A stretch of 64,000 nucleotides of DNA from the NCBI GenBank assembly GCA_048538235.1, contig JBLYPX010000001.1, positions 136,013 to 200,012 on the forward strand. The letters run 5' to 3'. Shown here one piece after another: positions 3,306-30,340 of this stretch. The stretch's first letter is position 1. Every line of letters begins with the position of its first letter. Made by a program: the position numbers and the translations under genes. Origin of the DNA: Candidatus Komeilibacteria bacterium (lineage in GTDB: Bacteria; Patescibacteriota; Patescibacteriia; UBA1558). The notes beneath the pieces were generated by a model. It saw only the letters and a program-made list of their open reading frames with translations, was not told where the DNA came from and did not search any database.

Positions 3306-3818
3306 ATGAGAGATGATGGCTTTTTGATAGTGATGATATGGTTTTTACTTGTTGTTGTTCCTCTCTTCATGGTTGAGAATAACAATAATGATACGCATGT
3401 TCAGGAAGAAGTGCCAGTTGAGGTGGTTGAATCAGGGCCAGTGGTTATTGAAACTGTTCTATCTGCAGTAAAGGTGGAATATGAAATTCAATACGGATCA
3501 TTTTACACAGGAGATCAGACATTGATTTTTCACCGTGGTAGTAGTGAAATTAAGGCCAAAGAAGGTTATGGTATTGGTTATGGAGGTTTACCTATCACTA
3601 GTTATGGTTGGCCTGTTCATTCGGAGTTTGTTTTCGAATTAGGAGATAGTGAAGCAACTTTGTTCATTGCTTGTGCTGGTCCAATAGCCAATGAACCATA
3701 CCAACCCAACGGTCTTTTTAGGGCTCCAGGCGCTGCCAATGCTATTCTCATGGATATAGATCTTAAGTCCAATGAGGATGGTAGTATTTTTGTTAAAGCA
3801 AAACCTACACCCATCTGA
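3306..3818 (+). CDS. Hypothetical membrane-anchored/secreted protein
   Basis: AAGGAGGA Shine-Dalgarno 8 nt before ATG 3306. N-terminal TM/signal segment (FLIVMIWFLLVVVPLFMV). No recognisable domain. Confidence 0.5.
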   Translation: MRDDGFLIVMIWFLLVVVPLFMVENNNNDTHVQEEVPVEVVESGPVVIETVLSAVKVEYEIQYGSFYTGDQTLIFHRGSSEIKAKEGYGIGYGGLPITSYGWPVHSEFVFELGDSEATLFIACAGPIANEPYQPNGLFRAPGAANAILMDIDLKSNEDGSIFVKAKPTPI

Positions 3819-3844
3819 TTTTATTTATTTTATTTAGACAAAGG

Positions 3845-3880
3845 AAAAGACCACTCGGTTGAGTGGTCTTTTTTTTGTTC
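3845..3880. terminator. Bidirectional rho-independent terminator
   Basis: AAGACCACTC-ggtt-GAGTGGTCTT followed by TTTTTTTT, between convergent genes. Confidence 0.7.
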
Positions 3881-4259
3881 ATTTTCTTAACAAGCCATTG
3901 ATGATGTTGAGCAAGTCCTTAATATCATATGGTTTGATAAGACTTGCAGAACAACCAAGTTCTTCTAGTTTTTTCTGATTATGCTCGTTGATTACGCAGG
4001 ATATGCACACAATGGGTATATCTTTAAATTGCGTACTATTACGAATGCCACGAATTAGGTTAAAACCAGACTCAAGTGGCAACATAATTGCAGTAGTAAC
4101 CAGATCAACTTGTTCTTTTAGTAGGATTTCTCTGGCCTCATCTGCGTCTCTTGCCAACAATACCTTGTATCCGCCTTGTTCGAGTAAAAGTTTTTCAAGC
4201 TTTTGCTGAACAGTGTCGTTTTCAACAACCATTATGGTTTGTGTTTTTGGTGTATTCAT
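3879..4259 (-). CDS. Stand-alone CheY-like receiver domain protein; atypical, with the phospho-acceptor Asp apparently replaced
   Basis: REC fold signature: N-terminal acidic pair (VVEND), a conserved Lys region (IKPYD) and a Ser/Thr position. Where 'DLVLLDxxMP' is expected the sequence reads 'DLVTTAIMLP', with Ala at the D57-equivalent. Strong SD (GGGAGGGGGGG) upstream. Confidence 0.6.
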   Translation of the reverse strand: MNTPKTQTIMVVENDTVQQKLEKLLLEQGGYKVLLARDADEAREILLKEQVDLVTTAIMLPLESGFNLIRGIRNSTQFKDIPIVCISCVINEHNQKKLEELGCSASLIKPYDIKDLLNIINGLLRK

Positions 4260-6196: not shown

Positions 6197-6747
6197 TGGA
6201 TATTGTTAATACAATCAAAGAGGGTGGAGTTGTAGTTCTGCCAACAGACACGCTGTATGGTTTACATGCAAGTGTTTTTAAAAAACAAGCTGTTAATAAT
6301 ATTTATGAACTTAAAAAAAGAACTTTAAGTAAGCCGTTAATAATACTAATTAGTTCTTGGGAAGATTTAGATAAGTTAAATGTTAAGATAAGTGATAATA
6401 TAAAAGAGAAGTTAAATAAATGGTGGCCAGGATCTTTAAGTGTCATACTTTCTTGTAATGACAATTCTTTAGAATATTTACATCGTGGCACTAATAGTTT
6501 AGCTATACGTTGGCCAGATTATCCATTGTTAAATAATATTCTTAAACAAACAGGTCCGCTTGTTTCGACTACTGTTAATCTTGAGGGAGAAAAGCCAGCA
6601 GAATCTATTACAGAAGCTAAGGAATTATTTGGAGATAAAGTGAATGCTTATTTAGATGATGGTGAAAGATCTGGCACCCATTCAACTTTAATTAAAGTAA
6701 ATGGAGACGACATTGAAGTTTTAAGAGAGGGGGTTGTTAAAATATGA
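6196..6747 (+). CDS. tsaC: L-threonylcarbamoyladenylate synthase TsaC (YrdC domain)
   Basis: YrdC-family motifs 'VVVLPTDTLYGL' and 'KPLIILIS'. Length about 183 aa. Confidence 0.75.
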   Translation: MDIVNTIKEGGVVVLPTDTLYGLHASVFKKQAVNNIYELKKRTLSKPLIILISSWEDLDKLNVKISDNIKEKLNKWWPGSLSVILSCNDNSLEYLHRGTNSLAIRWPDYPLLNNILKQTGPLVSTTVNLEGEKPAESITEAKELFGDKVNAYLDDGERSGTHSTLIKVNGDDIEVLREGVVKI

Positions 6748-7670
6748 TTCAACGATTAACAAATATAGATATAATAAAATTTTTATCAATTATCATCATG
6801 GTAATTGATCATATGATTTTAACATCTATAGACCAGACAGCAAATGTAGCTCAAGTAGTTTTCTTTACTTTTGTTCCGCTTTGTCAGATGGGATTTTTAT
6901 TCTCTTCTGGTTATTTGATGGCCTATTCTTTTAATAAACAAAAGTTTAATAAATATATATACAGAATAGCATTGTTTGTTATCCTTTTTATTTTAATGAC
7001 AGTGCTATCTGGTGAAAAGTTTATAGCTTCTGGTTCAATACTTTTAAACTTTGCTATAAGCATAGCTATTAGTTTATTTTTCCTTTACAGAGATAAAGTT
7101 AAGGATTTGTTTAATTTTGTAATTATATTATTTGGCCTTAATATTTTATTTCAACTATTTACTATGAATGGAATAACAGTTCTTAATGATATTATGGCTA
7201 ATTATCCTTATCCAGTTAATTCTTTTTCATTGTATTTCTTTATGGGGGTAATTTTGTTCAGTTATAAAAATGAAGTTAGAACCTGGTTTAAGGGTGTTTT
7301 ACCAACACTCATAACAACTATATTATTAATAGGCTATCCCTTTATATATGCTTATGGCATATATATTAATAAATATAGTTTTTACCAACATCTACCATTG
7401 TTAATTCTAGCTAGCGCTTTTATTGGGTTATATTTTTTCTATAAATGGGAGAATGTTAAAATACCAAATATTATACATAAGCCAATAATAAAAATAGCAG
7501 ATGCACTATTATACATCTACGTTATTCATTACATTGCCTTATTTGGTTTTATAAAAGATTATAATCTACCGTGGTGGTTATTAATTATAACCGTTATTCT
7601 TATTATAATCTTATCTATTTACTTAAAGAAAGTAGTTTACTATATTAAAAAACTTTATCTAAAAGTTTAG
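6744..7670 (+). CDS. Polytopic integral membrane protein (TraX-like/unknown family)
   Basis: About 8-9 predicted TM helices. N-terminal 'FLSIIIMVIDH' resembles TraX-family proteins, but the family assignment is tentative. Confidence 0.35.
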   Translation: MIQRLTNIDIIKFLSIIIMVIDHMILTSIDQTANVAQVVFFTFVPLCQMGFLFSSGYLMAYSFNKQKFNKYIYRIALFVILFILMTVLSGEKFIASGSILLNFAISIAISLFFLYRDKVKDLFNFVIILFGLNILFQLFTMNGITVLNDIMANYPYPVNSFSLYFFMGVILFSYKNEVRTWFKGVLPTLITTILLIGYPFIYAYGIYINKYSFYQHLPLLILASAFIGLYFFYKWENVKIPNIIHKPIIKIADALLYIYVIHYIALFGFIKDYNLPWWLLIITVILIIILSIYLKKVVYYIKKLYLKV

Positions 7671-9192: not shown

Positions 9193-9269
9193 GCGAGTGT
9201 AGCTCAGCTGGGAGAGCGTCTAGTTAAGCTCAAACTAGGAGGTCGGTGGTTCGAGTCCGCTCACTCGCT
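9193..9269 (+). tRNA. tRNA-like gene with an atypical extended anticodon arm (21 nt instead of 17); identity unresolved
   Basis: Perfect acceptor GCGAGTG/CACTCGC, D-arm GCTC/GAGC and T-arm GGTGG-TTCGAGT-CCGCT. The anticodon region TCTAGTT-AAGCTCA-AACTAGG folds as a 7-bp stem with a 7-nt loop lacking U33, or as a 5-bp stem with an 11-nt loop. Confidence 0.45.
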
Positions 9270-9289
9270 CAATGTTTGTTCTATTAACA

Positions 9290-9361
9290 GTGGGCGTAGC
9301 TCAATGGTAGAGCGTCAGCTTGGTAAGCTGAAGGTTGGCGGTTCAACCCCGTCCGCCCGCT
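9290..9361 (+). tRNA. tRNA-Thr(GGT)
   Basis: Acceptor GTGGGCG/CGCCCGC, D-arm GCTC-AATGGTA-GAGC, anticodon arm TCAGC-TTGGTAA-GCTGA, T-arm GGCGG-TTCAACC-CCGTC. No encoded CCA. Confidence 0.75.
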
Positions 9362-9366
9362 CAAAT

Positions 9367-9440
9367 CGGGAGATGGAGCAGCTTGGTAGCTCGCTGGGCT
9401 CATAACCCAGAGGTCGTTGGTTCAAATCCAACTCTCCCTA
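9367..9440 (+). tRNA. tRNA-Met(CAT), initiator-type
   Basis: Anticodon arm CTGGG-CTCATAA-CCCAG, giving three G-C pairs at positions 29-31:39-41. Unpaired 1:72 (C1/U72), A73. T-arm GTTGG-TTCAAAT-CCAAC. Confidence 0.7.
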
Positions 9441-9488
9441 CAATGAAGAGATGGTGTTAAACACTATCTCTTTTCATTTTAAATCTAA

Positions 9489-11039: not shown

Positions 11040-11975
11040 ATGATAAAAATTAAAGATTTAACAAAGAAATATGGTGATCTGGCTGCTGTAGACAATATCT
11101 CCCTAGAAATCAAAGAGGGGGAGATTTTAGGCTTTCTAGGGCCTAATGGTGCTGGTAAGACAACCACTATGAAGATATTAACTGGCTTTATGGCTCCAAC
11201 CACAGGTTCTGTTGAATTTGATAACTTAGATATTATTGAAGATAGTATTGCTATTCGTGAAAAGATTGGTTATTTACCAGAGAATAATCCTTTGTATGAA
11301 GATATGAAGGTGTATGAGTATTTAGCTTTTATGGGAAGAGTTCGTGGTATGAAAAGAGATAGATTGTTAAAGAGAATGAAGGAGATGATTAAATTAGCAG
11401 GACTTGAGGCGGTTTTGAAAAAACCAATTATGGAATTGTCTAAAGGTTATAGACAACGTGTTGGGCTTGCTCAAGCTATGCTTCACGATCCAGAGATATT
11501 AATACTTGATGAACCTACATCTGGTCTTGATCCTAATCAAATTGTTGAAATTAGAAGTTTAATTAAAAAGTTAGGTGAGCAAAAGACTGTTGTTTTATGT
11601 TCACATATTATGCAAGAAGTACAAGCTACTTGTGATAGGGTGATTATTATTAGTAATGGTAAAATTGTTGGACAGGGAACGCCTGACGAATTAACAGCTG
11701 GTGCTACTGGTAATGATTCTATGTATGTAAAGATTAAAGGTAATAAAGATTCTGTTTTAGAAAAAGTTGGTAAGTTGGAAAATGTGTTAAATATTACTTT
11801 GGCAGATAAAGAGTCAGAAGATATTAGAGGTTACAAGCTTTCTATTACAGCTGGAGGAGATATACGTGAAGAGTTATTTAAACTAGCAATAGATAATAAT
11901 TGGTCAATATTGGAGTCAAAGAAAGAGGCTGCATCTTTAGAAGATGTATTTAGAAAATTAACTAAGAATGAATAA
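11040..11975 (+). CDS. ABC transporter ATP-binding protein (ABC-2 type, GldA-like)
   Basis: Walker A GPNGAGKTT, ABC signature LSKGYRQRV and Walker B ILILDEP. Confidence 0.88.
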   Translation: MIKIKDLTKKYGDLAAVDNISLEIKEGEILGFLGPNGAGKTTTMKILTGFMAPTTGSVEFDNLDIIEDSIAIREKIGYLPENNPLYEDMKVYEYLAFMGRVRGMKRDRLLKRMKEMIKLAGLEAVLKKPIMELSKGYRQRVGLAQAMLHDPEILILDEPTSGLDPNQIVEIRSLIKKLGEQKTVVLCSHIMQEVQATCDRVIIISNGKIVGQGTPDELTAGATGNDSMYVKIKGNKDSVLEKVGKLENVLNITLADKESEDIRGYKLSITAGGDIREELFKLAIDNNWSILESKKEAASLEDVFRKLTKNE

Positions 11976-12697
11976 TGAGGTGGCAGACTATAAAATCTAT
12001 ATTTAAGAAAGAGTTTATTAGCTATTTTAATTCGCCAATAGCCTATATATTTATTGGTGTGTTTTTAATTGTTTCAATGTGGCTTTTCTTTCAAGATTTC
12101 TTTTTGATGGGACAAGCTACTATGCGTGGTTATCTTTCATTGTTACCATGGATATTTTTATTCTTAACACCAGCTATTACCATGAGACTTTGGTCTGAAG
12201 AAAAAAGATCAGGTACTATTGAAATATTATTAACCTTACCAGTTAAAGATAGTGAAGTGGTGTTGGGTAAGTTTTTATCTAGCTTAGCATTTTTAGCAGT
12301 TAATTTATTATTATCTTTAACATTGCCTATTACTATAGCTATCTTAGGTTCACTTGATTTAGGACCAGTAATTGGTGGTTATCTAGGAGCTTTATTCCTG
12401 GGCGCTGCTTATTTAGCATTGGGTCTATATATTTCATCTTTAACTAGAAACCAAATAGTTGCTTTCTTACTCGCTGTTGTTGCTAGTTTTATATTCTTCA
12501 TCATTGGTAGCAATATGGTAGTAGATAGTGTTAGCTTGTGGTTGGCTAAACTTTTAAGCTTTATTGGCCTTGGTTCACACTTTGCTAATATTGCTAAAGG
12601 AGTACTTGATTCAAGAGATATTATATATTATGTAACCTTTATTGCTTTTTTCCTATTTTTAAATATTCGAGCATTGTCAGCTAGACATTGGAAATAA
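11975..12697 (+). CDS. ABC-2 family permease
   Basis: Six predicted TM helices. Translationally coupled to the ATPase (stop/start overlap). Confidence 0.7.
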   Translation: MRWQTIKSIFKKEFISYFNSPIAYIFIGVFLIVSMWLFFQDFFLMGQATMRGYLSLLPWIFLFLTPAITMRLWSEEKRSGTIEILLTLPVKDSEVVLGKFLSSLAFLAVNLLLSLTLPITIAILGSLDLGPVIGGYLGALFLGAAYLALGLYISSLTRNQIVAFLLAVVASFIFFIIGSNMVVDSVSLWLAKLLSFIGLGSHFANIAKGVLDSRDIIYYVTFIAFFLFLNIRALSARHWK

Positions 12698-12698
12698 T

Positions 12699-14273
12699 AT
12701 GAAGTTTAATAAAAAACAATTCTATAGAGCTAGTAATACGATGCAGATTATAATTGTATTAGGTATTCTAATTGTAGTTAATGTTTTGTCTGTCTTTTTA
12801 AATGTTCGTTTAGATATGACTGAGGGTAAAGATTTTTCTATCTCTAAAACTACAAAAGATATTGTAAAGAATTTAGATGATATTGTTACAGTCAATGCAT
12901 ATTTTACAAAAGATTTACCGGGTAGACTTATTCCTTTAAGGCAGCAGGTGGAAGATATATTAGATGAGTATACAAATTATTCAAATAATAAAATAAACGT
13001 TAATTTTATTGATCCAGCTGGAGATCAAGATTTAGAGCAAGAAGTTATGAGTTTGGGTATTCCACCTTTACAGTTTTCTACTGTAGAGCAGGATAAGTAT
13101 GAGGTTGCTAGTGGTTATCTAGGTATGGCTATTTTATTTGAAGATAAAAAAGAAATTATTCCAGTTGTTGAAAATACTTTAACGTTAGAATATGAGTTAA
13201 CTAATGCTATAAAAAAGGTTACTAGTGATGAAAAGTTGACAGTAGCTTTTGCTACAGGTCATGGTGAATGGTCTAAAGATACAGATTATACTGCAGTAGC
13301 AGAATATTTAGCAAAACAATATGATGTCGTTGAACAAGATTTAAGTAGTGGAGAGTTTGTTGCAGATAATATTAAAACATTAATTATTGCTGGACCAAAA
13401 ACTTCATTTACAGATCAAGATTTATACATAATAGATCAATTCGTAATGAGAGGTGGTAGTGTCCTAGCACTACTTGATGGTACAGAGTTGGGAGATAATT
13501 TACAGGTTACACCATTAAGAACAGGACTTGAAAATTTGTTACAAAACTATGGTATGAAAGTTAATACAGATTTAGTATTGGATGTTTCTAATGGCATGGC
13601 TAGTTTTTCATCTGGCTATGTTCAATTTATGACACAGTATCCATTTTTTGTTAAATCAGTTAGTAAATATATGAATCCAGATTCTGTCTTGGTAAATCGT
13701 TTAGAGTCAGTTATGTTCCCTTGGGTAAGTTCAGTTGAGGTAATGAGTGATTCAAGCGAAACAACTTCTGTTTTTGATCTTGTTAGAACAACTGAACAAG
13801 CTTGGGATCAGGCAGAGAACTATAATTTAGATCCACAACAAAGATTTTCTGCTCCAGATGCAGAAAGATCTCAATATACTTTAGCTGCTGCAAAGTTTGG
13901 TGCTTTTAGTAGCTATTTTAGTAGTAGGGATGTTCCTGTAATAGAAGATCAGTCTATAGAAAATATTTCTAGTAGTGCAGATTCAAGATTAATAGTAGTT
14001 GGTGATGCAGACTTTGCTAAGGATTCTTTCTTAAGACAGAATTCAGAGAATTTAGTTTTCTTCTCTAACTTAGTAGATGGATTATCTCAAGATATGGATT
14101 TAATAATGATTAGATCTAAATCTGTAACAGATAGGCCATTAAAGGAATTATCTTTTGCTATGAAGCAATTAGTTAAATATATCAATATATTATTACCAAC
14201 TCTAATAGTAGTAATATATGGATTTATTAGATCATATATTCGCAGAAAGGAAGCAAGTAGAGATGTTATCTAA
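12699..14273 (+). CDS. GldG-like ABC-transport auxiliary protein (N- and C-terminal TM anchors, large extracytoplasmic domain)
   Basis: Immediately follows the ABC-2 permease. Bitopic architecture and a size of about 520 aa are typical of the GldG family. Confidence 0.55.
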   Translation: MKFNKKQFYRASNTMQIIIVLGILIVVNVLSVFLNVRLDMTEGKDFSISKTTKDIVKNLDDIVTVNAYFTKDLPGRLIPLRQQVEDILDEYTNYSNNKINVNFIDPAGDQDLEQEVMSLGIPPLQFSTVEQDKYEVASGYLGMAILFEDKKEIIPVVENTLTLEYELTNAIKKVTSDEKLTVAFATGHGEWSKDTDYTAVAEYLAKQYDVVEQDLSSGEFVADNIKTLIIAGPKTSFTDQDLYIIDQFVMRGGSVLALLDGTELGDNLQVTPLRTGLENLLQNYGMKVNTDLVLDVSNGMASFSSGYVQFMTQYPFFVKSVSKYMNPDSVLVNRLESVMFPWVSSVEVMSDSSETTSVFDLVRTTEQAWDQAENYNLDPQQRFSAPDAERSQYTLAAAKFGAFSSYFSSRDVPVIEDQSIENISSSADSRLIVVGDADFAKDSFLRQNSENLVFFSNLVDGLSQDMDLIMIRSKSVTDRPLKELSFAMKQLVKYINILLPTLIVVIYGFIRSYIRRKEASRDVI

Positions 14274-15183
14274 AATAGATAAAAAAAAGAATGTTGTTAA
14301 AACCAATATTATTTTAGGAGCAGTATTGGTTGTTTTAATTATAGTCGTTAGTATTGTTATGCTATTTGTTAATTTATCTGGATCAGATAAATCATTAAGT
14401 GGTTTAGATAAAAAAGTAGATAGTATTGAAATAACCAACAGTGAAGAAACAAATATTCTATTATTACAATCTGGACAATGGGTATTAGGTAATTATAACA
14501 ACCAGCCAGTGAAGCAAGAAAACGTTATAGATATATTTTCAACTTTAAACACATTAGAAATTGGTAATATTGTTTCCAGTAATCCAGATAAGCAATCTGT
14601 TTACCAAGTAGATGATAGTGGTATCAAGGTCGTGATGAAAAATGGAGATAAGGTTGTTGAAGAGTTTGTTGTCGGTAAGAATGGTCCGTCATGGCCAAGT
14701 TCATATATTCGTTTCTCAGGAAATAACGATGTATATCTAGTACGTCAAATGTTACCACAAATCTTTGGTCTCAAAGAATGGAGAGAACTTACCATTGCTC
14801 AAATTAATAGTGGTTTAATTAAGGGGTTAAAATGGAGTAATGGTTTAGAGGTTGTTAAGGAGGATACGGGTTGGAAAGTTGTTAATCCAGAAGAATTTGT
14901 AGTTGATGAAACTAAATTAAAATCAGTTTTAGATAATCTAAGTAATTTAGAAGCAATAGATATTGCAGATATTAGGGCTTGGGATTTAAATGGTCAGGAT
15001 GCAGATTTTATTTTAGAGGTTGTAACAGATGGTGTTAATTATAAGATTGCATATTACAGACACGATAGAGAAGAAGGAGATTATGATTATTACACAGTTA
15101 AAGAAGGGGATGATAATGTTTATGTTCTAACAAAATATATTGCTGAGAATATGAATAAAGAGGTTAAATTCTTAAAAGATTAG
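14263..15183 (+). CDS. DUF4340-like protein, N-terminal TM anchor
   Basis: Start ATG 14263 with AAGGAAG SD. Single TM, then a beta-rich domain. This family commonly follows gldG-like genes. Confidence 0.4.
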   Translation: MLSKIDKKKNVVKTNIILGAVLVVLIIVVSIVMLFVNLSGSDKSLSGLDKKVDSIEITNSEETNILLLQSGQWVLGNYNNQPVKQENVIDIFSTLNTLEIGNIVSSNPDKQSVYQVDDSGIKVVMKNGDKVVEEFVVGKNGPSWPSSYIRFSGNNDVYLVRQMLPQIFGLKEWRELTIAQINSGLIKGLKWSNGLEVVKEDTGWKVVNPEEFVVDETKLKSVLDNLSNLEAIDIADIRAWDLNGQDADFILEVVTDGVNYKIAYYRHDREEGDYDYYTVKEGDDNVYVLTKYIAENMNKEVKFLKD

Positions 15184-15210
15184 TTTGTTTATATATTATA
15201 ATTAATTAAT

Positions 15211-15233
15211 CGGGGTTACCCGGTTTTTTTATT
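15211..15233 (+). terminator. Rho-independent terminator
   Basis: CGGGGTTACCCGG hairpin followed by TTTTTTT. Confidence 0.5.
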
Positions 15234-15266
15234 GACTTTTACCGTATAATATATTAATTTGAAGTT

Positions 15267-17093
15267 ATGTTTAGCTTTAGAAAAAAGAAGAAAAGTAATA
15301 AATTAACAATCATGCTAGGAATAGTTGTTGTTCTATTTGTTTTGCTTTTCTATAGCTTGTGGACATTGCGTTATGTGGTGTGGCAATTAGATGATTTGGG
15401 TGATGTAGTTGTTTCAATGGCTGAAGATTTTAATGAAACAAGCCCAGAGCTTAAGTCTGAGAAATTAATGGTTGCCATGGCCATTATTGAAGACATTCAG
15501 GGTCAGTTAGATAGACTAAGATTTGTTCGCTTAGCTCCTGTTTTAAGGGGAATGTATTATGATATACAAGATAGTTTTGATCAGGTTGGACAGATATTTT
15601 TCTACCTTAATAAATTAAATACAGAATTAGCAGATGTATATGGAGATAAATTATCTGAAAAAACATTAGCTTCATATTTTTTACAAGTAGATGAGGAAGA
15701 GTTAAATAATAAGATAAAAAGCATATCTTCAATACTTACCAATATGGAAGATAATTTAACTGTTCTAAGTAAGGATGTAGATAGTTTAAGTAACACGTGG
15801 TTATTAAAGTCTCAGAAAGAAACAATGTTAAAAATGAGTTCTGGAGTAAATGAATTTGCATCTATATTAAGTAAGGTTAATGAGCTAATTGATATCGCGC
15901 CCGAGCTATTAGGTTATCCAGATGAAATGAATTATCTATTACTATTACAGAACAACCATGAAATGAGAGCAACTGGAGGATTTATTGGTAATTATGGAAT
16001 TCTAACAGTGCACAATGGACGTGTTAAAAATATTTTTATAGACGATATTTATCATTTGGACAGTGAAATAATAGGTGAGTTAGAAATTGAACCACCATCA
16101 CCTATACGAGAATATTTAAATGTTAAGTATTGGTATATGCGAGATAGTAACTGGTCTCCAGATTTTCCAACCGCTGCCAGAAAAGCTATTGAGTTCTATA
16201 ATCTAGAAGGTGGTAGTGAAACTATTGATGGTGTAATGGCAATATCACCAGATGTTATTAGCGATTTACTTGATGTTACGGGAGACATATTAATTTCAGA
16301 TGTTCTATATGAATCAGATAATTTTACAAATATATTACAGTATGAGGTAGAACAAAATTATGAGGCTAGAGGTGTAAGTCATTGGGATCGTAAAGACATT
16401 ATTTCAGACATTGCTAATACTATGATTGAGAATTTATCTAGCTTGCCTTTAGAAAAAATATTTAAAATTGTAGATGTAATATACGATAATTTGGATAGTA
16501 AAGATATACAGATATATTCTTTAGCAAATGATACTCAAAAATATTTAAATGAAAAGAATTGGTCTGGTAGATTAATATCTACAGATAAAGATTATCTAAT
16601 GGTGGTAGATAGTAATATGGCAGCGTATAAAACAAATCAGTATGTAGACAGATCTATAGACTATTATGTGCAGAAAGTAAAAAATCCTGTTGGTGAAGAT
16701 TATGCTATAGCTACAGTTAAAATTAAATATGATCATTCGGGAGATTTTTCTTGGGATACAACCAGATACAGAACATACACCAGAATATATGTGCCGAAAG
16801 GATCTATTTTAATTTCTTGGGATGGAGCTATGGCTGATGATAGAACAACAGAACCTGGGAATATAGATATATCTCAAGAACAAGATAAAACAGTATATGG
16901 AACATTTATTGCTATTGAGCCTGGTGAAACGGGTGAGCTAACTATGCAGTATAGATTACCAGATAGTGTATTAAAAAATTATACTTTCACTTACCAAAGA
17001 CAATCTGGTATGGAAGATAATTTATCTACTTCTTTATTTAATAGGAAGTCATCACATATGCCTGTTGAGTCAGATATTGAGATTAGATTATAA
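15267..17093 (+). CDS. Hypothetical envelope protein, DUF4012-like; N-terminal TM, then a large extracytoplasmic domain
   Basis: N-terminal hydrophobic helix. Conserved 'EMRATGGFIGNYG' block, which I recall from DUF4012 proteins. Confidence 0.4.
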   Translation: MFSFRKKKKSNKLTIMLGIVVVLFVLLFYSLWTLRYVVWQLDDLGDVVVSMAEDFNETSPELKSEKLMVAMAIIEDIQGQLDRLRFVRLAPVLRGMYYDIQDSFDQVGQIFFYLNKLNTELADVYGDKLSEKTLASYFLQVDEEELNNKIKSISSILTNMEDNLTVLSKDVDSLSNTWLLKSQKETMLKMSSGVNEFASILSKVNELIDIAPELLGYPDEMNYLLLLQNNHEMRATGGFIGNYGILTVHNGRVKNIFIDDIYHLDSEIIGELEIEPPSPIREYLNVKYWYMRDSNWSPDFPTAARKAIEFYNLEGGSETIDGVMAISPDVISDLLDVTGDILISDVLYESDNFTNILQYEVEQNYEARGVSHWDRKDIISDIANTMIENLSSLPLEKIFKIVDVIYDNLDSKDIQIYSLANDTQKYLNEKNWSGRLISTDKDYLMVVDSNMAAYKTNQYVDRSIDYYVQKVKNPVGEDYAIATVKIKYDHSGDFSWDTTRYRTYTRIYVPKGSILISWDGAMADDRTTEPGNIDISQEQDKTVYGTFIAIEPGETGELTMQYRLPDSVLKNYTFTYQRQSGMEDNLSTSLFNRKSSHMPVESDIEIRL

Positions 17094-17170
17094 TCTTTGA
17101 TTAACTCTTGACAAAAACGTAATAATAGTGTTAATATAATCCTTCAGATTATAAGTTTTTTAGTATTATT

Positions 17171-17863
17171 ATGATATATATAAAAAGGCTAAGATTACAC
17201 AAAAATTTAATATATAAAATAACCTTATCCATTATTGTGGTTACGGTTGTGATTTCACTATTCATGCCCCAGCAATACCGTGCTCAGGCTAAGCTATTGG
17301 TAATTCAACATCAATCACAATCTTTAGATGCATATCTTGCGGCCAAGTCAGCAGAAAAGGTTGGTAAAGTCTTATCTGAAGTTGTGTATAGTAGTTCTTT
17401 TTTTGATGAAGTTTGGCAAGCAGGATTCAATATTGGAACAGACTGGGGAGAGACCCCCAGAGATAGACGTAAGATATGGAAAAAAAGAGTCAGTTTAAAT
17501 CCTATACCGCAAACATCTTTAATTGAAATTAATACTTATCATACAGATAGAGTTAGTGTTGAACAACTAGCTCAGGCAATGATTTATGTATTAGTTGAAA
17601 GAGGTTCGCAATATCATGGTGGTGGCGATCAGGTTCAAATAAAATTAGTCGACAAACCGATTGTATCAAATTATCCGGTTAGACCGAATTTGTTACTTAA
17701 TGCCCTAGCTGCATTATTAATTGGTTTGGTGATTAGTTTCATATATGTTTATCTGAAACCAGATAAAGATAATATGAAAGTGGATGATAATTCTACATAC
17801 ACACCAGAAGGTGGTATGGTAGAAGAGATTCGTTCAAACAGTTATCTAACACCAAAGCGGTAA
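17171..17863 (+). CDS. Wzz-like polysaccharide chain-length determinant (short form)
   Basis: TM1, then a 'QYRAQAKLLV' Wzz-type motif, a periplasmic domain and a C-terminal TM2 (LLNALAALLIGLVISFIYVYL). Confidence 0.55.
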   Translation: MIYIKRLRLHKNLIYKITLSIIVVTVVISLFMPQQYRAQAKLLVIQHQSQSLDAYLAAKSAEKVGKVLSEVVYSSSFFDEVWQAGFNIGTDWGETPRDRRKIWKKRVSLNPIPQTSLIEINTYHTDRVSVEQLAQAMIYVLVERGSQYHGGGDQVQIKLVDKPIVSNYPVRPNLLLNALAALLIGLVISFIYVYLKPDKDNMKVDDNSTYTPEGGMVEEIRSNSYLTPKR

Positions 17864-17903
17864 TTTAAACACGATCGTTGAAAACAAAATAAGGGGAGTT
17901 AAC

Positions 17904-18974
17904 ATGAAACACTTACTCGTGACCGTGTTGCTAACAGCAACGGTTTTTGCTCAAACTCCAGATATTATTCTGGAAGGTTTTTCCTGGCCAGAACAGGTTA
18001 GAAAGGAAATGACAGTACGTTCAAGTCAACAGGCCCAAACAATCGTTTTGCATGAGCAACAACTGGCATATGGAGGTTACAGTCTGGTGGATCAGAATTT
18101 CCATGAGAATGTAATTCTTCCAGTCGGTTCCAAACTGAATGTTTGGAGATATGATTTAGAAGATGAATCATATTACCTTATGCAGACAAAGAATGGTTGG
18201 TACTGGGTGACCACTGCAGACCTATACCCCTCTCAAGAGAGTAGGGGGCCTAGTTTTGTAATTGAGAACCTTGAGTGGAATCAAAAATTCAGCTATTGGA
18301 GCGCAGATTATGGCGATCGAATAGCTGGTTCACGCTATAGCTTATTCGTAGATAAGAAATTATCTTGGATTGGTAATGGTGGAGATTTTGATCTATCTCC
18401 GGGTGCTGGTTTTAGCATGCGCTATAGACCAGATTCAGAGATTCGATCACAGGCTGAACAAATTCCCATGTATTTAGTGCGTTTAGCATTGAATGCGAAT
18501 AAGAGTTTGTTTCAGTCAGATTGGTTAAGATTCCAATGGTACGCTTCAGGAAGCTATTACATGCCAATAGAGAGTCGTTTTGACGATACTTGGGATGTGT
18601 ACAGCAAATTCTCGTGGCGACTACCAACTCTTTTGAGTAGTAACCTCAGATTGAATTTTACCTACTACGGTTCAGAGCCGGTTTCCAAGGAGTGGGAGTA
18701 TTCTGAAGGTAAGGTGCAGCTATTGTACTCTTACGAAAATCTACCCATATATATTGGGTGGGTGCCATATACTTCTGCAAATTGGAGAAATACCGATGGT
18801 TGGGTAACGCACAGTGAGGCAAAGGACAACAACTTTGTTATCGGTGTAGAATCCAGCAAGGTATGGTTCGAGTTAAACTTCGGAACTTATCACAAGAAAT
18901 CTGGCATGGAGCCGGAGATCAGCCATGAAGGTGACGAAAGACATTTGTCGTTTTCAGTTGGCACCAAACGCTAA
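17904..18974 (+). CDS. Secreted aromatic-rich protein, possible beta-barrel; first gene of the GC-rich island
   Basis: Signal peptide MKHLLVTVLLTATVFA|QTP. AAGGGGAG SD. Alternating aromatic/hydrophilic beta-strand-like patterns in the C-terminal half. About 45% GC against about 28% in the flanks. Confidence 0.55.
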   Translation: MKHLLVTVLLTATVFAQTPDIILEGFSWPEQVRKEMTVRSSQQAQTIVLHEQQLAYGGYSLVDQNFHENVILPVGSKLNVWRYDLEDESYYLMQTKNGWYWVTTADLYPSQESRGPSFVIENLEWNQKFSYWSADYGDRIAGSRYSLFVDKKLSWIGNGGDFDLSPGAGFSMRYRPDSEIRSQAEQIPMYLVRLALNANKSLFQSDWLRFQWYASGSYYMPIESRFDDTWDVYSKFSWRLPTLLSSNLRLNFTYYGSEPVSKEWEYSEGKVQLLYSYENLPIYIGWVPYTSANWRNTDGWVTHSEAKDNNFVIGVESSKVWFELNFGTYHKKSGMEPEISHEGDERHLSFSVGTKR

Positions 18975-18983
18975 GGAGGAAAT

Positions 18984-20027
18984 ATGAAAGTAAAAATGAG
19001 CTTAGTGCTCATGTCGTTGTTGGTGCTGATTGGCTGTTCCAAGTTTTGGGAAGACAGTCTAACTGCACCGACAAGCACGTATAATCTGGGTAATTCTCAG
19101 ATTACAGCGATAGTTTTGGGTAAGACTGCTGCTGATACCGCAAATTTTAAATCAAATATGTGGTTGAAGAGCGACAGTTCTGGCACGGAATATCGTGAGG
19201 TGCAGTTTTCCGACATATTGCGGATTACTACAATGGTGAGTGAACAGCTCTACAAGAGTAGGGTCAGCTATAACGGAATTGTACCTTTTGCGGGATTTAC
19301 CATTGCTGGTGTTGAACCAACATATTGGACTATTGATAAGGAGCAGGGTCCCTGGTTTTGGGGAGGAATTGATCCAGAAGGAAATTTCGTTCAGGATCAA
19401 AACAACCTTGCTGATACTGTCATTATTCCAATTGAGGTTTATGCAGCCAGTGGTAATAGTTACAGTTTCAACGGTACTGGTACAGATCATGACAATAGGA
19501 ATGTTCCATGGAATTCTGGTCTGAATCGTTATCGTGAGGAAATGGTAACATTACCTGGTGAGCATCGTTATGATTTTTACGGCTCCGGTATTGACTCAGT
19601 CAGAATTGGAAACACAATGATCTACGATATCAGTGGTGGATACATCAGTTTCGAAATCGTAGATTCTAATCAAGTATCTGTACTGGATGATCTGTCTGGT
19701 ATGCATGAGGTCTCTTGGCAGGATACTGCATCAGCAGATTCTGTCGCGTTGATGATCTCAGATAGATTAGGGGATAGAAATTATAACCTAATCAACCAGT
19801 CTGGCAATTGGCTTCATTCAGTTGTCATGCCGTCAGATACTTTAATATTGTTGAGAGTTGAAGCTGATAACGAATTGCAAGTGACAGGTGTTAAAGTTGC
19901 TAATACAGAACTTCATCATCTGGTCATGGTAGATTCGAGTCAGTATTGGTTCGCCTTTCGTCTTGTAGATGGAGTGGTGAGTCAGGATTCAGCTAACAAC
20001 TTTCCAAACCTTCAACTTTATCCCTAG
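18984..20027 (+). CDS. Lipoprotein of unknown function (island gene 2)
   Basis: Lipobox LVLIGC|SK. AAGGAGGA SD. GC-rich codon usage. Confidence 0.55.
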   Translation: MKVKMSLVLMSLLVLIGCSKFWEDSLTAPTSTYNLGNSQITAIVLGKTAADTANFKSNMWLKSDSSGTEYREVQFSDILRITTMVSEQLYKSRVSYNGIVPFAGFTIAGVEPTYWTIDKEQGPWFWGGIDPEGNFVQDQNNLADTVIIPIEVYAASGNSYSFNGTGTDHDNRNVPWNSGLNRYREEMVTLPGEHRYDFYGSGIDSVRIGNTMIYDISGGYISFEIVDSNQVSVLDDLSGMHEVSWQDTASADSVALMISDRLGDRNYNLINQSGNWLHSVVMPSDTLILLRVEADNELQVTGVKVANTELHHLVMVDSSQYWFAFRLVDGVVSQDSANNFPNLQLYP

Positions 20028-20036
20028 GAGGGAAAT

Positions 20037-20861
20037 ATGAAAGCATGGCAAGTTGGAACATTGGTTGCTGTAGTCGCCATTTTGTTCCTAATCACAGGAT
20101 TTAGTCTTCGAGGGTGTTCTTCATCTGATGAAGCCAAGTCCGAACCTCAGACTGTTACGCAGGATGAGGTGGGTAAGATGATTGCTCAGGCTATCGAGGA
20201 TTTTTCGAAGGAACAGTCCAAACAGATCCAATCATTGGGTTTGTCAATCGATACCCTGGGTATACGGATAGCTGAAAACAAACCAGCTCCTGTTGCAAAA
20301 CCCGCACAACATGCAAAGAAAACACCCACGAAAAAGCATGTGACGTACAAGAAGTCGACCAAGAAGAAGGCACCTGTACATCGAACGCAATCAGTGAGTG
20401 TTGATCAGTCAATGACTGAGATCTTTGCAAACAGTGAGTTTATTCCATCTCAACGCAAAACTGTTGCTGTGGCTCCTGTACAGCAACAGGTGATACGGAC
20501 CAGTGCTCCTGCTGTTCAGCAAAATGCTCTGGTGAAAACACCACCACCGCCCATTGGACAACTCAAAGTTCTTGTATCTTCGGATGCAAAGCACATCTGG
20601 GGAACTGCAACGAACTGGACATCTGGCCAGGTAAGGGTGAAGAAGGGAATTGCTTATATCCCAGCTCGCACGGGTAATAGACTGTACATCAATGGTGATC
20701 TGAAAGATAAGACCTACCTTGATGCTCAGGAAATTACCTTGGTTGCACCAAACGGAAGTCAGGTTACTCTTAATTGGAGTAATTCAGGCGTAGACGGTCC
20801 GGCAGCGAACCAGAAGAATTTGGTGTATTCGTACATGGGCGGGAATCTCAGCATTCCTTAA
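20037..20861 (+). CDS. Membrane-anchored protein with a Lys/Pro-rich linker (island gene 3)
   Basis: N-terminal TM (LVAVVAILFLITGF), a basic low-complexity linker (PAPVAKPAQHAKKTPTKKH...) and a C-terminal globular region. GGAGGGA SD. Confidence 0.5.
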   Translation: MKAWQVGTLVAVVAILFLITGFSLRGCSSSDEAKSEPQTVTQDEVGKMIAQAIEDFSKEQSKQIQSLGLSIDTLGIRIAENKPAPVAKPAQHAKKTPTKKHVTYKKSTKKKAPVHRTQSVSVDQSMTEIFANSEFIPSQRKTVAVAPVQQQVIRTSAPAVQQNALVKTPPPPIGQLKVLVSSDAKHIWGTATNWTSGQVRVKKGIAYIPARTGNRLYINGDLKDKTYLDAQEITLVAPNGSQVTLNWSNSGVDGPAANQKNLVYSYMGGNLSIP

Positions 20862-20876
20862 TATCTCCCAAAACAA

Positions 20877-20920
20877 AACAACGACCAGTCTTAGACTAAC
20901 TTTGACTGGTCGTTTTTTTA
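20877..20920 (+). terminator. Rho-independent terminator closing the island operon
   Basis: ACGACCAGTC-ttagactaacttt-GACTGGTCGT followed by TTTTTTT. Confidence 0.7.
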
Positions 20921-20985
20921 TTTTAAATAATATTGACAGACATCATTTTTTATGTTTAGATATAGCTTAATCAAAGGTATTAAAA

Positions 20986-22269
20986 ATGGAGAAAAATAGC
21001 TTAATTTTTACTAATTTACGACTAATCACAGTACTATTGTGCTTAGTTGTTTTATTATATCCATTTAACCAATTTTACTGGACTTATGGGTGGGATATAA
21101 ATATACCTTATGCAGATCTGATTATTATATTATTAGGTGTTATCACGGGTATATTTTTCATAACAGATTTGTTCAAAAAAAGACTTAAACCCTTTCCAAA
21201 ACAATTGTTTATTAATTTAATACCACTGGTTTTATTAATAATTACTGGAGCTTTATCTTTAACTAATGTTTGGTCAGAACAATTAGGCGCTAGTATTAAG
21301 TATTGGTGGAGGTTTGTTGGTTTCTACTATATTTTTTATTTTTTATTCATTCAGTATTTAGCAAGTAATGAAAAGAGGTTTTGGAGAATAAGTTATTGTA
21401 TATATGGTCTAGGTATATTTTTATCTTTTATGGGACTTGTTTCATTTATATCTCCTGAAATACCTCAAGCCTTTCGTATGGCTGCACCACTTTCTTGGTT
21501 CGGACTTTTTCCATACGCCTCAAGTCATAATTTATTAGCAGAGAGTTTAGTTAGTATCATTTTGTTTAGTTGGCTACTTGCTTACCGTTATCAATCTAGA
21601 GAAATTAGTAAGTGGTTATATTTAGGAATAGCTTTTATGATTGGCATCACAGTTTTAACTTTTTCTAGAACAGGTTGGTTAGTATTATGGATTGAGTTAT
21701 TTATTTTAGCAGCCATTTATTACAAAGATTATTTTATTTTGTTTATTAAAAAGTTTTGGTGGACTGGATTAGTTTTATTAGCATTACTTTCTATATATTT
21801 TATTACCTTTGGTCAGACAAATTTTGTGACCAGTTCTAATGCAGCTAGAGTAGCTATGATAGATAAAAGCTGGTCATTGTTTTTAGATCACCCAATACTT
21901 GGTAATGGCATAGGTACTTGGCAAGAGATAGTTAGTAAAGATATATATTATGTTGCAGAATTTGGACAACCATTAGAACAACATGGGATTTTATGGAAAT
22001 TAATTGCTGAGCAGGGCATAGTTGGTGTAATTGTGTGGTTTGGCATGATGATATATTTTCTGTATCTTTTGTTTAAAAATTATACAAGTTTTACTAAAGA
22101 TAATCCTTGGCGTTGGGGAGCTTTAATTGCTTTACTAGTTGTTTTAGGACAATTCATATTTCAATTACTAGATACAGGCTATTATTCAGCTAAAATGTGG
22201 ATGCCAATGGGTCTTGCTTTTGCTCTTATGTATATTTCACAGAAATATTTAGTTAACGAAAAGTCATGA
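20986..22269 (+). CDS. O-antigen ligase/polymerase-like membrane protein (Wzy_C/WaaL family)
   Basis: About 11 TM helices. 'FSRTGWL' loop motif, as in O-antigen ligase family proteins. Confidence 0.55.
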   Translation: MEKNSLIFTNLRLITVLLCLVVLLYPFNQFYWTYGWDINIPYADLIIILLGVITGIFFITDLFKKRLKPFPKQLFINLIPLVLLIITGALSLTNVWSEQLGASIKYWWRFVGFYYIFYFLFIQYLASNEKRFWRISYCIYGLGIFLSFMGLVSFISPEIPQAFRMAAPLSWFGLFPYASSHNLLAESLVSIILFSWLLAYRYQSREISKWLYLGIAFMIGITVLTFSRTGWLVLWIELFILAAIYYKDYFILFIKKFWWTGLVLLALLSIYFITFGQTNFVTSSNAARVAMIDKSWSLFLDHPILGNGIGTWQEIVSKDIYYVAEFGQPLEQHGILWKLIAEQGIVGVIVWFGMMIYFLYLLFKNYTSFTKDNPWRWGALIALLVVLGQFIFQLLDTGYYSAKMWMPMGLAFALMYISQKYLVNEKS

Positions 22270-29141: not shown

Positions 29142-29217
29142 TGGTAGCGGGGGTTGGACTCGAACCAACGACCTTCGGGTTATGGGCCCGACGAGCTGCC
29201 AACTGCTCTACCCCGCG
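29142..29217 (-). tRNA. tRNA-Met(CAT), initiator-type, CCA encoded
   Basis: After reverse complement: acceptor CGCGGGG/CCCCGCU with unpaired C1/U72; anticodon arm TCGGG-CCCATAA-CCCGA with three G-C pairs; T-arm GTTGG-TTCGAGT-CCAAC. Confidence 0.7.
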
Positions 29218-29272
29218 TCATAGTTTATATATACTATCCCGGAGGACAATAATTGTCAAGTTAAATTGATTT

Positions 29273-29349
29273 TGGTAGCGGGGGTGGGGTTTGAACCCAC
29301 GACCTCAGCGTTATGAGTGCTGCGCTCTGACCAACTGAGCTACCCCGCC
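29273..29349 (-). tRNA. tRNA with CAT anticodon, elongator-type (tRNA-Met or lysidine-dependent tRNA-Ile2)
   Basis: After reverse complement: acceptor GGCGGGG/CCCCGCU with a G1.U72 wobble pair; anticodon arm CAGCA-CTCATAA-CGCTG (A31/C39 mismatch); 9-nt D-loop; CCA encoded. Confidence 0.65.
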
Positions 29350-29350
29350 A

Positions 29351-29435
29351 TGGTGGGCGAAGAGGGACTCGAACCCTCACGAGCTTGCGCTCATAGGTTT
29401 TTGAGACCTACGTGTCTACCAGTTCCACCACTCGC
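29351..29435 (-). tRNA. tRNA-Leu(CAA), class II with a long variable arm
   Basis: After reverse complement: GGGCGAG acceptor, D-arm GTGGAACTGGTAGACAC, anticodon arm TAGGT-CTCAAAA-ACCTA, 15-nt variable arm, T-arm GAGGG-TTCGAGT-CCCTC, CCA. Confidence 0.8.
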
Positions 29436-29512
29436 CCTGGTAGATATCTGTAAAAGCGTTATCATTTTAAGGTATTTATGTTAATAAGTCAACCCAAATG
29501 CAGATTAGATCA

Positions 29513-29541
29513 TTGAAATAAACGTATTTTTTAGGTATAAT
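29513..29541 (+). promoter_or_regulatory. Candidate sigma-70 promoter for parAB (TTGAAA-17-TATAAT) giving a near-leaderless transcript
   Basis: Near-consensus hexamers with 17-nt spacing. The -10 ends 10 nt before the parA ATG, and no SD is evident. Confidence 0.45.
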
Positions 29542-29551
29542 TAAGTCAATT

Positions 29552-30322
29552 ATGGCAAGAACAATATCAGTCGTTAATCAAAAAGGAGGAGTCGGTAAAA
29601 CTACCACAGCTATCAACCTGTCGGCTTTTTTAGCTAAACTTGGTTATAAAGTTTTACTAGTAGATATAGATCCGCAGGGTAATGCGTCATCTGGTTTTGG
29701 TTTACGCACTCAGGATTTAGAAGAAAGTATTTATGATGTATTAGTGCAAGAGCCTAAAAGTTTAGATAGTATTGTTCAAAAAACAAAGATTAGTAAATTA
29801 CACGTAGCACCAGCCAATACAAATTTAGCAGGGGCTAATGTAGAGTTAATATCTATGCCTAGGCGTGAGTTTAAGTTGTGGGATAATATTAATTCAATAT
29901 CCCATAAATATGATTTTGTTATTATAGACAATCCACCATCATTAGGAATACTAGCCATTAATGGTCTTGTTGCAGCTGATGAAGTGCTAATACCAGTACA
30001 AACAGAATATTATGCTCTAGAGGGTTTAAGTCAGCTTTTACACACAATTGAATTGGTTAGACAGAATTTAAAACCAGATCTAAAGATATTAGGAGCTGTT
30101 ATGACAATGTATGATGGTAGATCTAAATTATCTGAGGCTGTTTTTTATGAATTGTACAAATATTTTCCAAATAAAATATTTAGATCAATAATTCCGCGTA
30201 ATGTTCGTTTAGCAGAAGCACCATCTCATGGTAAGTCTATTTATGAGTACGATAAAAAATCTAAAGGTGCTAAAGCTTATGAAAAATTAGCTAGAGAAGT
30301 AGCTGAAGCAAAACGTTTTTAA
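29552..30322 (+). CDS. parA: Chromosome partitioning ATPase ParA/Soj
   Basis: Deviant Walker A 'NQKGGVGKTTTAINL'. Length 256 aa. Followed by parB. Confidence 0.9.
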   Translation: MARTISVVNQKGGVGKTTTAINLSAFLAKLGYKVLLVDIDPQGNASSGFGLRTQDLEESIYDVLVQEPKSLDSIVQKTKISKLHVAPANTNLAGANVELISMPRREFKLWDNINSISHKYDFVIIDNPPSLGILAINGLVAADEVLIPVQTEYYALEGLSQLLHTIELVRQNLKPDLKILGAVMTMYDGRSKLSEAVFYELYKYFPNKIFRSIIPRNVRLAEAPSHGKSIYEYDKKSKGAKAYEKLAREVAEAKRF

Positions 30323-30340
30323 TTCTGGTATAATATATAT

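Follow-up and report, generated by a model that had tools for sequence, protein, structure and literature searches.

Whether a stretch of DNA whose composition departs sharply from its surroundings has arrived recently, or has long belonged to the lineage that carries it, is the question raised by a three-gene block in the genome of a Candidatus Komeilibacteria bacterium. The block occupies positions 17880-20925 of the window, by which we mean the whole 64-kb stretch of this metagenome-assembled genome (MAG) that was analysed, part of a contig of 860 kb, and it comprises genes A, B and C (proteins with NCBI locus tags ACKKL6_00825-00835) between a gene for a Wzz-like protein (wzz) and a gene for a Wzy_C membrane protein (wzy). 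The original prediction regarded it as an envelope operon recently acquired by horizontal transfer and inserted into a surface-glycan locus of a host that might belong to the Candidate Phyla Radiation (CPR). The host is indeed of the CPR type; our comparisons, however, favour a model in which the block is an ancient, clade-wide and recombining cassette that forms a fixed part of a capsule- or exopolysaccharide-like surface-glycan locus and is not a recent import, a reading to which we assign a probability of about 0.7. Horizontal transfer at this site is the exchange of divergent alleles of an old module within the clade.

The compositional anomaly is pronounced. The GC content of the block is 0.428 against 0.326 in the rest of the window, the highest value among all 3046-bp windows (non-overlapping windows: mean 0.327, standard deviation 0.022, maximum 0.385), and it goes up at ~17880 and down at ~20870, at the start of the ribosome-binding site of the first gene and the end of the third. 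The figures of about 45% against about 28% given initially were somewhat exaggerated, the flanking genes being at 29-35% GC, but the shift itself stands. Codon choice differs from the flanks as had been claimed: GC content at third codon positions (GC3) is 0.412, 0.382 and 0.425 in A, B and C, which is 4.7-5.9 standard deviations above that of the 42 background open reading frames (ORFs) of the window (mean 0.207, standard deviation 0.037, maximum 0.339), and the log-likelihood of their synonymous codons under background usage, at -1.26 to -1.38 vs -0.89+/-0.09, lies 4-5.6 standard deviations below the mean, with CTG, TTG, CAG, AAG, CCC/CCG and CGN enriched. Amino-acid composition is a minor contributor, the share of FYMINK residues (Phe, Tyr, Met, Ile, Asn and Lys) being 0.26-0.27 in the three proteins vs 0.33. 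The other local GC peaks of the window are two tRNA clusters, at 9193-9441 (Ser-Thr-Met) and 29142-29437 (Leu-Met-Met), and a peak at 49-50.5 kb, in the gene of a repeat protein with a GC3 of 0.18, for which codon positions 1 and 2 are responsible. Another small region of atypical composition is found at 3261-4259, where a response-regulator gene (3879-4259, minus strand) has a GC3 of 0.339, the poorest codon fit of the background (-1.23) and a very strong Shine-Dalgarno (SD) site, GGGAGGGGGG, at -15.7 kcal/mol; the adjoining ORF (3261-3818, plus strand) has no Pfam match and a GC3 of 0.29.

Such a profile would be readily explained by recent acquisition from a donor of higher GC content, probably a Gram-negative one, and besides the strongly atypical composition and codon usage this explanation can draw on the sharp GC boundaries and on the presence of SD-led genes in an SD-poor genome. 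It is the distribution of the module that tells against it. A alone, or A-B-C with or without a fourth gene, X, lies 3' of the Wzz-like gene in L001-L003, L006-L010 and L016-L022, which make up 14 distinct loci (these are labels of related loci recovered by our searches, all from metagenome assemblies; L020, L021 and L022 were reached through the Wzz-like protein). The 14 span A proteins down to 22% identity with that of the window, and in none of them does wzz adjoin wzy, i.e. no empty site was seen. The gene order is ABC ATPase, ABC-2 permease, GldG-like auxiliary protein, DUF4340, DUF4012, Wzz-like, then A, B, C with or without X, a GH114 lipoprotein, and finally Wzy_C, GT4 and GHL15/FG-GAP. 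With wzz and DUF4012 upstream of the cassette and Wzy_C, GT4 and GHL15 downstream, the placement inside a surface-glycan locus that had been proposed is borne out.

Wider searches gave the same picture. A full HMMER scan of 1.84 billion representative proteins returned 12 representatives of the A family, and 8/8 of those whose context was looked up sit in the slot between wzz and wzy; a search of 185,579 species genomes, made with the alignment of B because the 12-member A alignment was too divergent for search patterns, returned one locus. Searches with A, B and C themselves also returned very few relatives. No homologue outside the clade was recovered from either collection, and no donor lineage was found. 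Nor were an integrase, a transposase, a tRNA or convincing repeats found at the borders of the module, where the neighbours are wzz and wzy and the nearest tRNA clusters lie at 9.2-9.4 kb and 29.1-29.4 kb of the window. An origin from a phage- or plasmid-like element was considered separately and rejected, as viral and phage collections yielded no relative of the module and no phage DNA match; an assembly chimera was rejected as well, since assemblies from NCBI, ENA, JGI and Logan show the same arrangement independently of one another.

The comparison with the closest relative is supportive of long residence. Between the window and L002, module and flanks are collinear at 85.6% DNA identity, and the synonymous divergence (dS) of the module, 0.51-0.72, resembles that of the flanks, 0.71-0.81; the module has diverged in step with its flanks since the two lineages split, with no demonstrable exchange. 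The ratio of nonsynonymous to synonymous divergence (dN/dS) is 0.11 for A, 0.135 for B and 0.195 for C, and values of 0.11-0.20 indicate that the module genes are real and under purifying selection. Third-position changes of the module polarised with L001 as outgroup number 10 GC>AT vs 11 AT>GC in the window lineage and 7 vs 12 in L002, so that the module shows no net decay of GC in either lineage, with the caveat that the counts are small and subject to parsimony bias. The module counts alone were used for this purpose, as the polarised counts of the flanks show a large apparent excess of AT>GC changes that we ascribe to parsimony bias in AT-rich sequence. The original prediction had itself taken orthologues of the same GC content in the same position across the lineage as evidence against an import, and the module, with similar GC (0.36-0.46) where this was measured, occupies the slot in all 14 loci. 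Given its occurrence with such divergent A proteins, its divergence in step with the flanks, borders free of mobility genes, tRNAs and convincing repeats, and the lack of homologues outside the clade among the collections searched, we regard recent import as very improbable, and the claim of an insertion is left unsupported.

While the module kept pace with its flanks in these two lineages, a different pattern emerges between others. In L003 and L006, the flanks encode proteins that are 82-94% identical (dS 0.25-0.46), and dS rises close to the cassette, to 0.49 in wzz, 0.62 in the glycosyltransferase (GT) gene and 0.94 in wzy, whereas A, B and C share only 35%, 49% and 28% protein identity and their synonymous sites are saturated. 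At the DNA level, a blastn comparison of the two gives 91% identity to ~100 nt before the wzz stop codon, none across the module, and a return of similarity at the start of wzy. The similarity of the window to L003, L006, L018, L019, L021 and L010 likewise ends at 17763-17772, and it returns at 20853-20943 (L003, L006, L018, L021) or further into wzy, at 21252 (L019, L010). These borders coincide with the GC-rich stretch together with the variable tail of the Wzz-like protein: the last ~95 nt of wzz (~17770-17863) encode this C-terminal tail and form the left border of the hypervariable stretch, and its right border falls at the terminator that follows C. The module is far more divergent between lineages than its flanks, though it is under purifying selection.

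Distances within the cassette are also at odds with one another. B of the window is 59% identical to that of L006, while L003 and L006 share only 49%, which is incongruent with the flanks, and the pattern of A differs again. L001 is mosaic, joining an A of the window type to a C of the L006 type and a B with an internal deletion; at positions 301-1774 of this Logan contig the A homologue is interrupted, and the deletion in B covers ~670 nt relative to window positions 19216-19885, so that this locus is either a mosaic cassette in decay or the product of an assembly error. An abrupt rise in synonymous divergence at sharp borders is what allele replacement through homologous recombination leaves behind, and not something that faster protein evolution would bring about. 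Divergent alleles have been exchanged between lineages, with breakpoints in the 3' tail of wzz, in the 5' end of wzy and also inside the cassette.

This bears on the view that the module was inherited vertically, was never exchanged and evolved very fast in situ through diversifying selection or local hypermutation. Exported surface proteins do often evolve fast, C has the highest dN/dS of the three, and in the comparison with L002 the conservation of the module falls only a little below that of its flanks. Vertical descent of this kind nevertheless accounts neither for the step in synonymous divergence between L003 and L006, from 0.25-0.46 to saturation, nor for the mutually incongruent distances of A and B and the mosaic in L001; dN/dS is well below 1, and fast neutral turnover under AT-biased mutation should lower GC3 instead of keeping it above that of the flanks. 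We consider it distinctly improbable.

On the reading of an old, recombining cassette, what calls for explanation is that its composition has persisted. Module genes have a GC content of 0.36-0.46 (GC3 0.27-0.49) in all lineages, while the flanks vary from 0.28 to 0.42 overall, with ~0.28-0.35 in the window, L002, L003, L006 and L018, ~0.34-0.37 in L010, L016, L017 and L019 and ~0.40 in L009. Module GC exceeds flank GC in every lineage in which both were measured, and the excess is largest in genomes of 30% GC and almost gone in L009 with its 40%. The translation signals are equally distinctive. The three genes of the window are tightly spaced, with spacers of 9 nt between A and B and between B and C, and each is led by a strong SD site, as had been noted. 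Background ORFs of the window pair with the anti-SD sequence at a mean of -2.05 kcal/mol, and at most 5/42 reach -8 kcal/mol even if every possible start in the first 40 codons is considered. In ten lineages, by comparison, the module genes A, B, C and X have GGAGG-type sites at -6 to -12 kcal/mol, with the called starts of C and X in L010 as exceptions, whereas wzz, wzy, GT, GHL15 and DUF4012 genes range from about 0 to -6 kcal/mol and have no canonical site. A GGAG-type site precedes A in 9/9 lineages with upstream sequence, an SD-type motif precedes B in 9/9 lineages that hold B (the weakest, in L010, at -6.2 kcal/mol), and a GGAGG-type site precedes C in the relatives except L010, whose called start has none.

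The genome is otherwise poor in SD sites, and within the window canonical GGAGG-type sites precede only the module genes and a few others. Many background ORFs have a TATAAT box 8-15 nt 5' of the start codon (examples are 15242-15266, 29527-29551 and 30316-30340), which suggests leaderless mRNAs or mRNAs with very short leaders. A strong SD-like G-run, GAGAGGGGGTTG (-16.7 kcal/mol), is located at 6719-6743, inside the end of a Sua5/YciO gene and 5' of an acyltransferase gene (6744-7670).

That SD sites and GC-rich codons are conserved though the synonymous sites between alleles are saturated implies that some directional force must maintain both. Persistent GC-richness is likely a maintained property of the cassette, brought about by GC-biased gene conversion through frequent recombination, a process described in bacteria by Lassalle et al. 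2015 (PMC4450053), and/or by selection for strong, SD-led translation; repeated import from clade members of higher GC content is a third candidate. One could also attribute GC-richness and SD sites entirely to translational selection on very highly expressed genes, for instance those of a major surface-layer component, with no part played by recombination. The strong sites, conserved in ten lineages and absent only at the two called starts in L010, the retention of GC3 in all lineages and the slightly lower dS of the module relative to its flanks in the comparison with L002 are all consistent with this idea. The codon shift, however, is a general one towards G- and C-ending codons that includes the rare CGN, CTG and CCG, not one towards a narrow preferred set, and the 64-kb window contains no ribosomal-protein or other highly expressed reference genes with which to compare it. 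Translational selection is compatible with the sharp recombination borders but leaves them unexplained, and as the sole cause we think it rather unlikely.

The cassette exists in two forms. X, the fourth gene, lies 3' of C in L006/L008, L009, L010, L018, L019 and L021, but the window, L002 and L003 lack it; the C and wzy genes of the window are only 125 nt apart, terminator included. X encodes a GH114 lipoprotein: 4/5 members match PF03537, the best at E=2.3e-7 with a score that clears the cut-off. The three-gene form is probably the derived one, given that X is present in most lineages and missing from the window, L002 and L003, and the ancestral cassette was therefore probably the four-gene form with GH114, from which the lineage of the window lost X.

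The products of the three genes have the sequence features of exported envelope proteins, in agreement with the original prediction. Pfam, PHROG, NCBIfam and PADLOC gave no consistent match for A, B or C, which includes Pfam scans of every member of the three families and the defence systems of PADLOC, and sequence and profile searches of the PDB with A, B, C and X gave nothing significant. By these searches A is a new family. It carries a Sec signal peptide (MKHLLVTVLLTATVFA|QTP), and full-length homologues have comparable N-termini; it is rich in aromatic residues (W+Y+F 16% vs 9.3+/-3.5%; W 4.5% vs 1.2+/-0.9%). The protein has a WP/SH3-like segment at its N-terminus, and the ~230 aa of its C-terminal domain are made up of long period-2 amphipathic stretches. 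Such segments account for 60% of the residues of A vs 32% for B, with alternating short and long connectors between strands, a pattern compatible with a transmembrane barrel and equally with soluble beta folds.

The suggestion that A might resemble an outer-membrane protein deserves consideration, given what it would imply. If A were a true transmembrane beta-barrel, it might form, together with the lipoproteins B and C, a Gram-negative-style machine for the export or surface display of glycan, comparable to GfcBCD, LptDE or Slam, and this would require an outer layer that hosts barrels or insertion into the membrane of a host cell. The signal peptide, the aromatic and amphipathic content of A and the position of its gene next to lipoprotein genes and the Wzz-like gene would fit, and four members of the A family end in ...KLF, ...TF or ...TEF. 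The C-terminus of the window protein, on the other hand, reads ...SFSVGTKR, and a terminal aromatic residue (F), as in a beta-signal, is found in only 4/12 family members and absent in the other 8/12; no member matches a Pfam outer-membrane family, and soluble beta-sandwiches show period-2 amphipathicity as well. Alignment of the A and B profiles by hhalign to Escherichia coli GfcB, GfcC and GfcD gave probabilities of 5.5, 2.7 and 0.9%, with sensitivity limited by the single-sequence templates, and AlphaFold2 returned no barrel, in a model that is uninformative at a predicted local distance difference test score (pLDDT) of 29 from a shallow alignment. Outer-membrane components and systems have been reported to be lacking in CPR bacteria (PMC6744442), and the window encodes an enzyme of Gram-positive type, LCP (LytR-CpsA-Psr). 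We consider a barrel improbable. Here we also mention a more speculative combination, namely that A-B-C is a clade-specific surface complex in which A inserts as a barrel into an outer layer of the cell itself or into the membrane of an attached host, with SD-dependent, GC-rich "privileged" translation and serotype-like switching. We give it little credence; if it held, the barrel complex would be a determinant of host contact or phage reception in an episymbiont, and no barrel/lipoprotein module would have been described before it in a CPR cell of the monoderm type.

B is the best-conserved member of the module. Its lipobox reads LLVLIGC|S, the Cys is kept in 9/9 homologues, and one member matches the Pfam family LPAM_1; Lgt and LspA did not turn up among the scanned ORFs of the window, where no search was aimed at either. 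The AlphaFold2 model of B, again from a shallow alignment, has a pLDDT of 45, with an all-beta C-terminal half at 50-66. Residues ~146-200 may form a CBM48-like sugar-binding sandwich, which we treat only as a lead: a PDB profile search aligned them with the glycogen-binding domain of SIP2 at a non-significant E=0.43, and Foldseek matched the model to generic beta-sandwiches at E>0.1 and to SIP2-type chains at a likewise non-significant E~0.5. A match of B to HphA_C (E=0.011) was seen in 1/9 members and taken as noise. C, the most variable member, carries at its N-terminus a hydrophobic segment in which an atypical LRGC resembles a lipobox. It further has a coiled-coil-like segment, a linker rich in Lys and Pro and a conserved C-terminal beta domain of ~100 aa; K makes up 30-33% of its residues 81-120, and its homologues in L006, L009 and L018 are lipoproteins.

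The envelope in which these proteins would act is, as the LCP and DUF4012 genes of the window suggest, of the Gram-positive type. The LCP glycopolymer transferase (43058-44575, minus strand) and a Mur ligase (35562-36818, minus strand) hint at a Gram-positive-type wall with attached glycopolymers, and DUF4012 has been linked to Gram-positive capsular polysaccharide and exopolysaccharide (CPS/EPS) clusters and is enriched in CPR bacteria (PMC6744442). We infer that A, B and C are exported by Sec, with signal peptidase I cleaving A and signal peptidase II probably acting on B, that B and C stay anchored on the outside of the single cell membrane, and that the Lys/Pro-rich linker of C would span the wall. 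Secreted A might then join B and C in a surface-exposed assembly beside the Wzz/Wzy polymerisation machinery, which might bind the nascent glycan or process and trim it, as the CBM-like stretch in B and the GH114 protein of the ancestral form would suggest. Exposure to phages, hosts or predators would select for allele turnover as at serotype loci: an assembly exposed at the surface would be under pressure to vary, and this would be met by swapping whole or partial alleles of the cassette. The glycan-handling role of the complex is a tentative proposal that falls somewhat short of even odds.

Several points weigh against our reading and should be kept in view. No exchange can be demonstrated for the lineage of the window since its split from L002. 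The relatives are all metagenome assemblies, some of which, e.g. L001, may hold assembly errors. The counts behind the polarised-substitution test are low and subject to parsimony bias, and the lack of highly expressed reference genes in the window also limits any statement on the cause of GC and SD upkeep. The proposed function draws on where the genes lie, on their export signals and on a single enzyme encoded beside them in relatives but not in the window; A, B and C have no significant family or structure match, the CBM48-like similarity of B included.

The features of the locus are collected in Table 1. The Wzz-like protein, which is 43-83% identical to its relatives, matches GNVR (E=4.4e-5, 23.8 bits, gathering threshold 27.7) and Wzz (E=2.2e-4, 21.9 bits, gathering threshold 25.5), both below the Pfam cut-off. 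Its gene lacks an SD site (-0.2 kcal/mol) and is preceded by a promoter-like TTGACA-18-TAATAT at 17108-17137. The wzy gene, whose proteins share 44-90% identity among relatives, also lacks an SD site and has its own promoter-like site at 20902-20931. The strong terminator that had been described at the end of the block is likewise present, and Rfam gave no match with E<0.1 to a structured RNA in or around the block.

Table 1. Genes, ribosome-binding sites and terminator of the cassette and its immediate flanks. Positions refer to the window unless a related locus is named; energies for SD sites are duplex energies.
Feature	Position	Strand	Description
Wzz-like (polysaccharide co-polymerase-like) gene	17171-17863	+	Left flank, conserved; probably co-transcribed with the module
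SD site of gene A, AAGGGGAG	17891-17898	+	-8.1 kcal/mol
Gene A	17904-18974	+	356 aa, secreted, Trp/Tyr-rich, predicted all-beta
SD site of gene B, AAGGAGGA	18973-18980	+	Overlaps the stop codon of A; -11.1 kcal/mol
Gene B	18984-20027	+	347-aa lipoprotein, lipobox LIGC, predicted all-beta
SD site of gene C, GGAGGGA	20027-20033	+	Overlaps the stop codon of B; -10.7 kcal/mol
Gene C	20037-20861	+	274 aa, membrane-anchored
Intrinsic terminator	20870-20926	+	Inverted repeat; hairpin 20870-20924, -21.3 kcal/mol, z = -7.3, followed by a U-run
Wzy_C (O-antigen ligase/polymerase-like) membrane protein gene	20986-22269	+	Right flank, conserved; Pfam Wzy_C E=3.4e-13, above cut-off
Gene X (related loci)	L006 11763-12692; L009 13038-13952; L010 9209-10132; L018 4331-5251; L019 4066-5004; L021 3841-4767		GC-rich, SD-led

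Further upstream, positions 11040-17093 encode the ABC ATPase, the ABC-2 permease, the GldG-like auxiliary protein (ABC_transp_aux/DUF7088), DUF4340 and DUF4012, and this block accompanies the Wzz-like gene in every related locus with upstream sequence available. At some distance, the window holds three consecutive large ORFs, of which the first two (47565-50486, 973 aa, and 50486-59431, 2981 aa) encode an N-terminal segment resembling type IV secretion system (T4SS) pilin/TrbC, followed by Big_5, TIG, Big_7 and NHL/propeller repeats according to Pfam, and the third (59489-62917) encodes 1142 aa.

The present analysis might be of use beyond this locus, as it indicates that in a small CPR genome rich in AT, a sharp departure in composition can be a trait that one recombining cassette keeps across a lineage and not the mark of a recent import, which is a caution for the calling of islands in MAGs. 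Three uncharacterised exported families and a GH114 lipoprotein are the fastest-changing part of a conserved surface-glycan locus, and A, B, C and X may represent candidate determinants of host attachment or phage reception in episymbiotic bacteria. Three features coincide here, namely a high GC3 that is maintained, synonymous divergence that has reached saturation, and SD sites limited to the cassette although the genome is otherwise SD-poor, and the locus could also serve as a test bed for GC-biased gene conversion versus translational selection. It would be of more interest still should A turn out to be a membrane barrel, or should biased gene conversion be shown to hold the cassette GC-rich.

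Comparison with known systems places these observations in context. A DUF4012-containing CPS/EPS cluster of Bifidobacterium longum 105-A is mentioned in PMC6744442, citing PMC5412050, and Gram-positive-type clusters of this kind resemble the present locus in combining DUF4012, a chain-length-regulator-like protein, a Wzy-type protein and GT4, and differ from it in that A, B and C were found in the present clade only by the searches made. The GfcA-D (YmcD-A) proteins of the E. coli group-4 capsule are similar in being a small exported accessory set encoded beside a co-polymerase gene, with a low-complexity membrane protein, a lipoprotein and a beta-rich protein; however, no homology to them was detected by hhalign, sizes differ (GfcD has 698 aa), and Gfc works in a diderm envelope. 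At the level of single domains, GH114 is known from the hydrolase domain of PelA and from Ega3, which act on galactosamine-containing exopolysaccharides, and X matches this family (PF03537), although it is absent from the window. The CBM48/AMPK-beta glycogen-binding domain shares with residues ~148-199 of B the pattern V-x-V...G-x-x-Y-V-x-G...LPxGxHxY, as seen in SIP2, whereas the low confidence of the model, the non-significant matches given above and the lack of a Pfam CBM family in any of the 9 B members set the two apart.

The closest parallel is provided by the serotype-determining cassettes of Wzx/Wzy-dependent loci, such as the O-antigen clusters of Enterobacteriaceae and the cps loci of streptococci. 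Like these, the present locus has a central block of atypical GC content between conserved flanks, with alleles that are extremely divergent in close relatives and are replaced through homologous recombination in the flanks, where divergence rises beside the block. In contrast to them, the variable block consists of exported non-enzymatic proteins, with GH114 in some loci, and not of glycosyltransferases, flippases or sugar-synthesis genes; no such glycan-determining gene (glycosyltransferase, Wzx/Wzy, sugar synthesis) is present in the cassette, and A, B and C match no enzyme family. It is also richer in GC than its genome, where classical cases are poorer, it alone carries SD sites relative to its neighbours in the locus, and its host is a CPR bacterium. 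Taken together, the block is a serotype-like recombining cassette of a known type, with an unusual content and with unusual, conserved signals of composition and translation.

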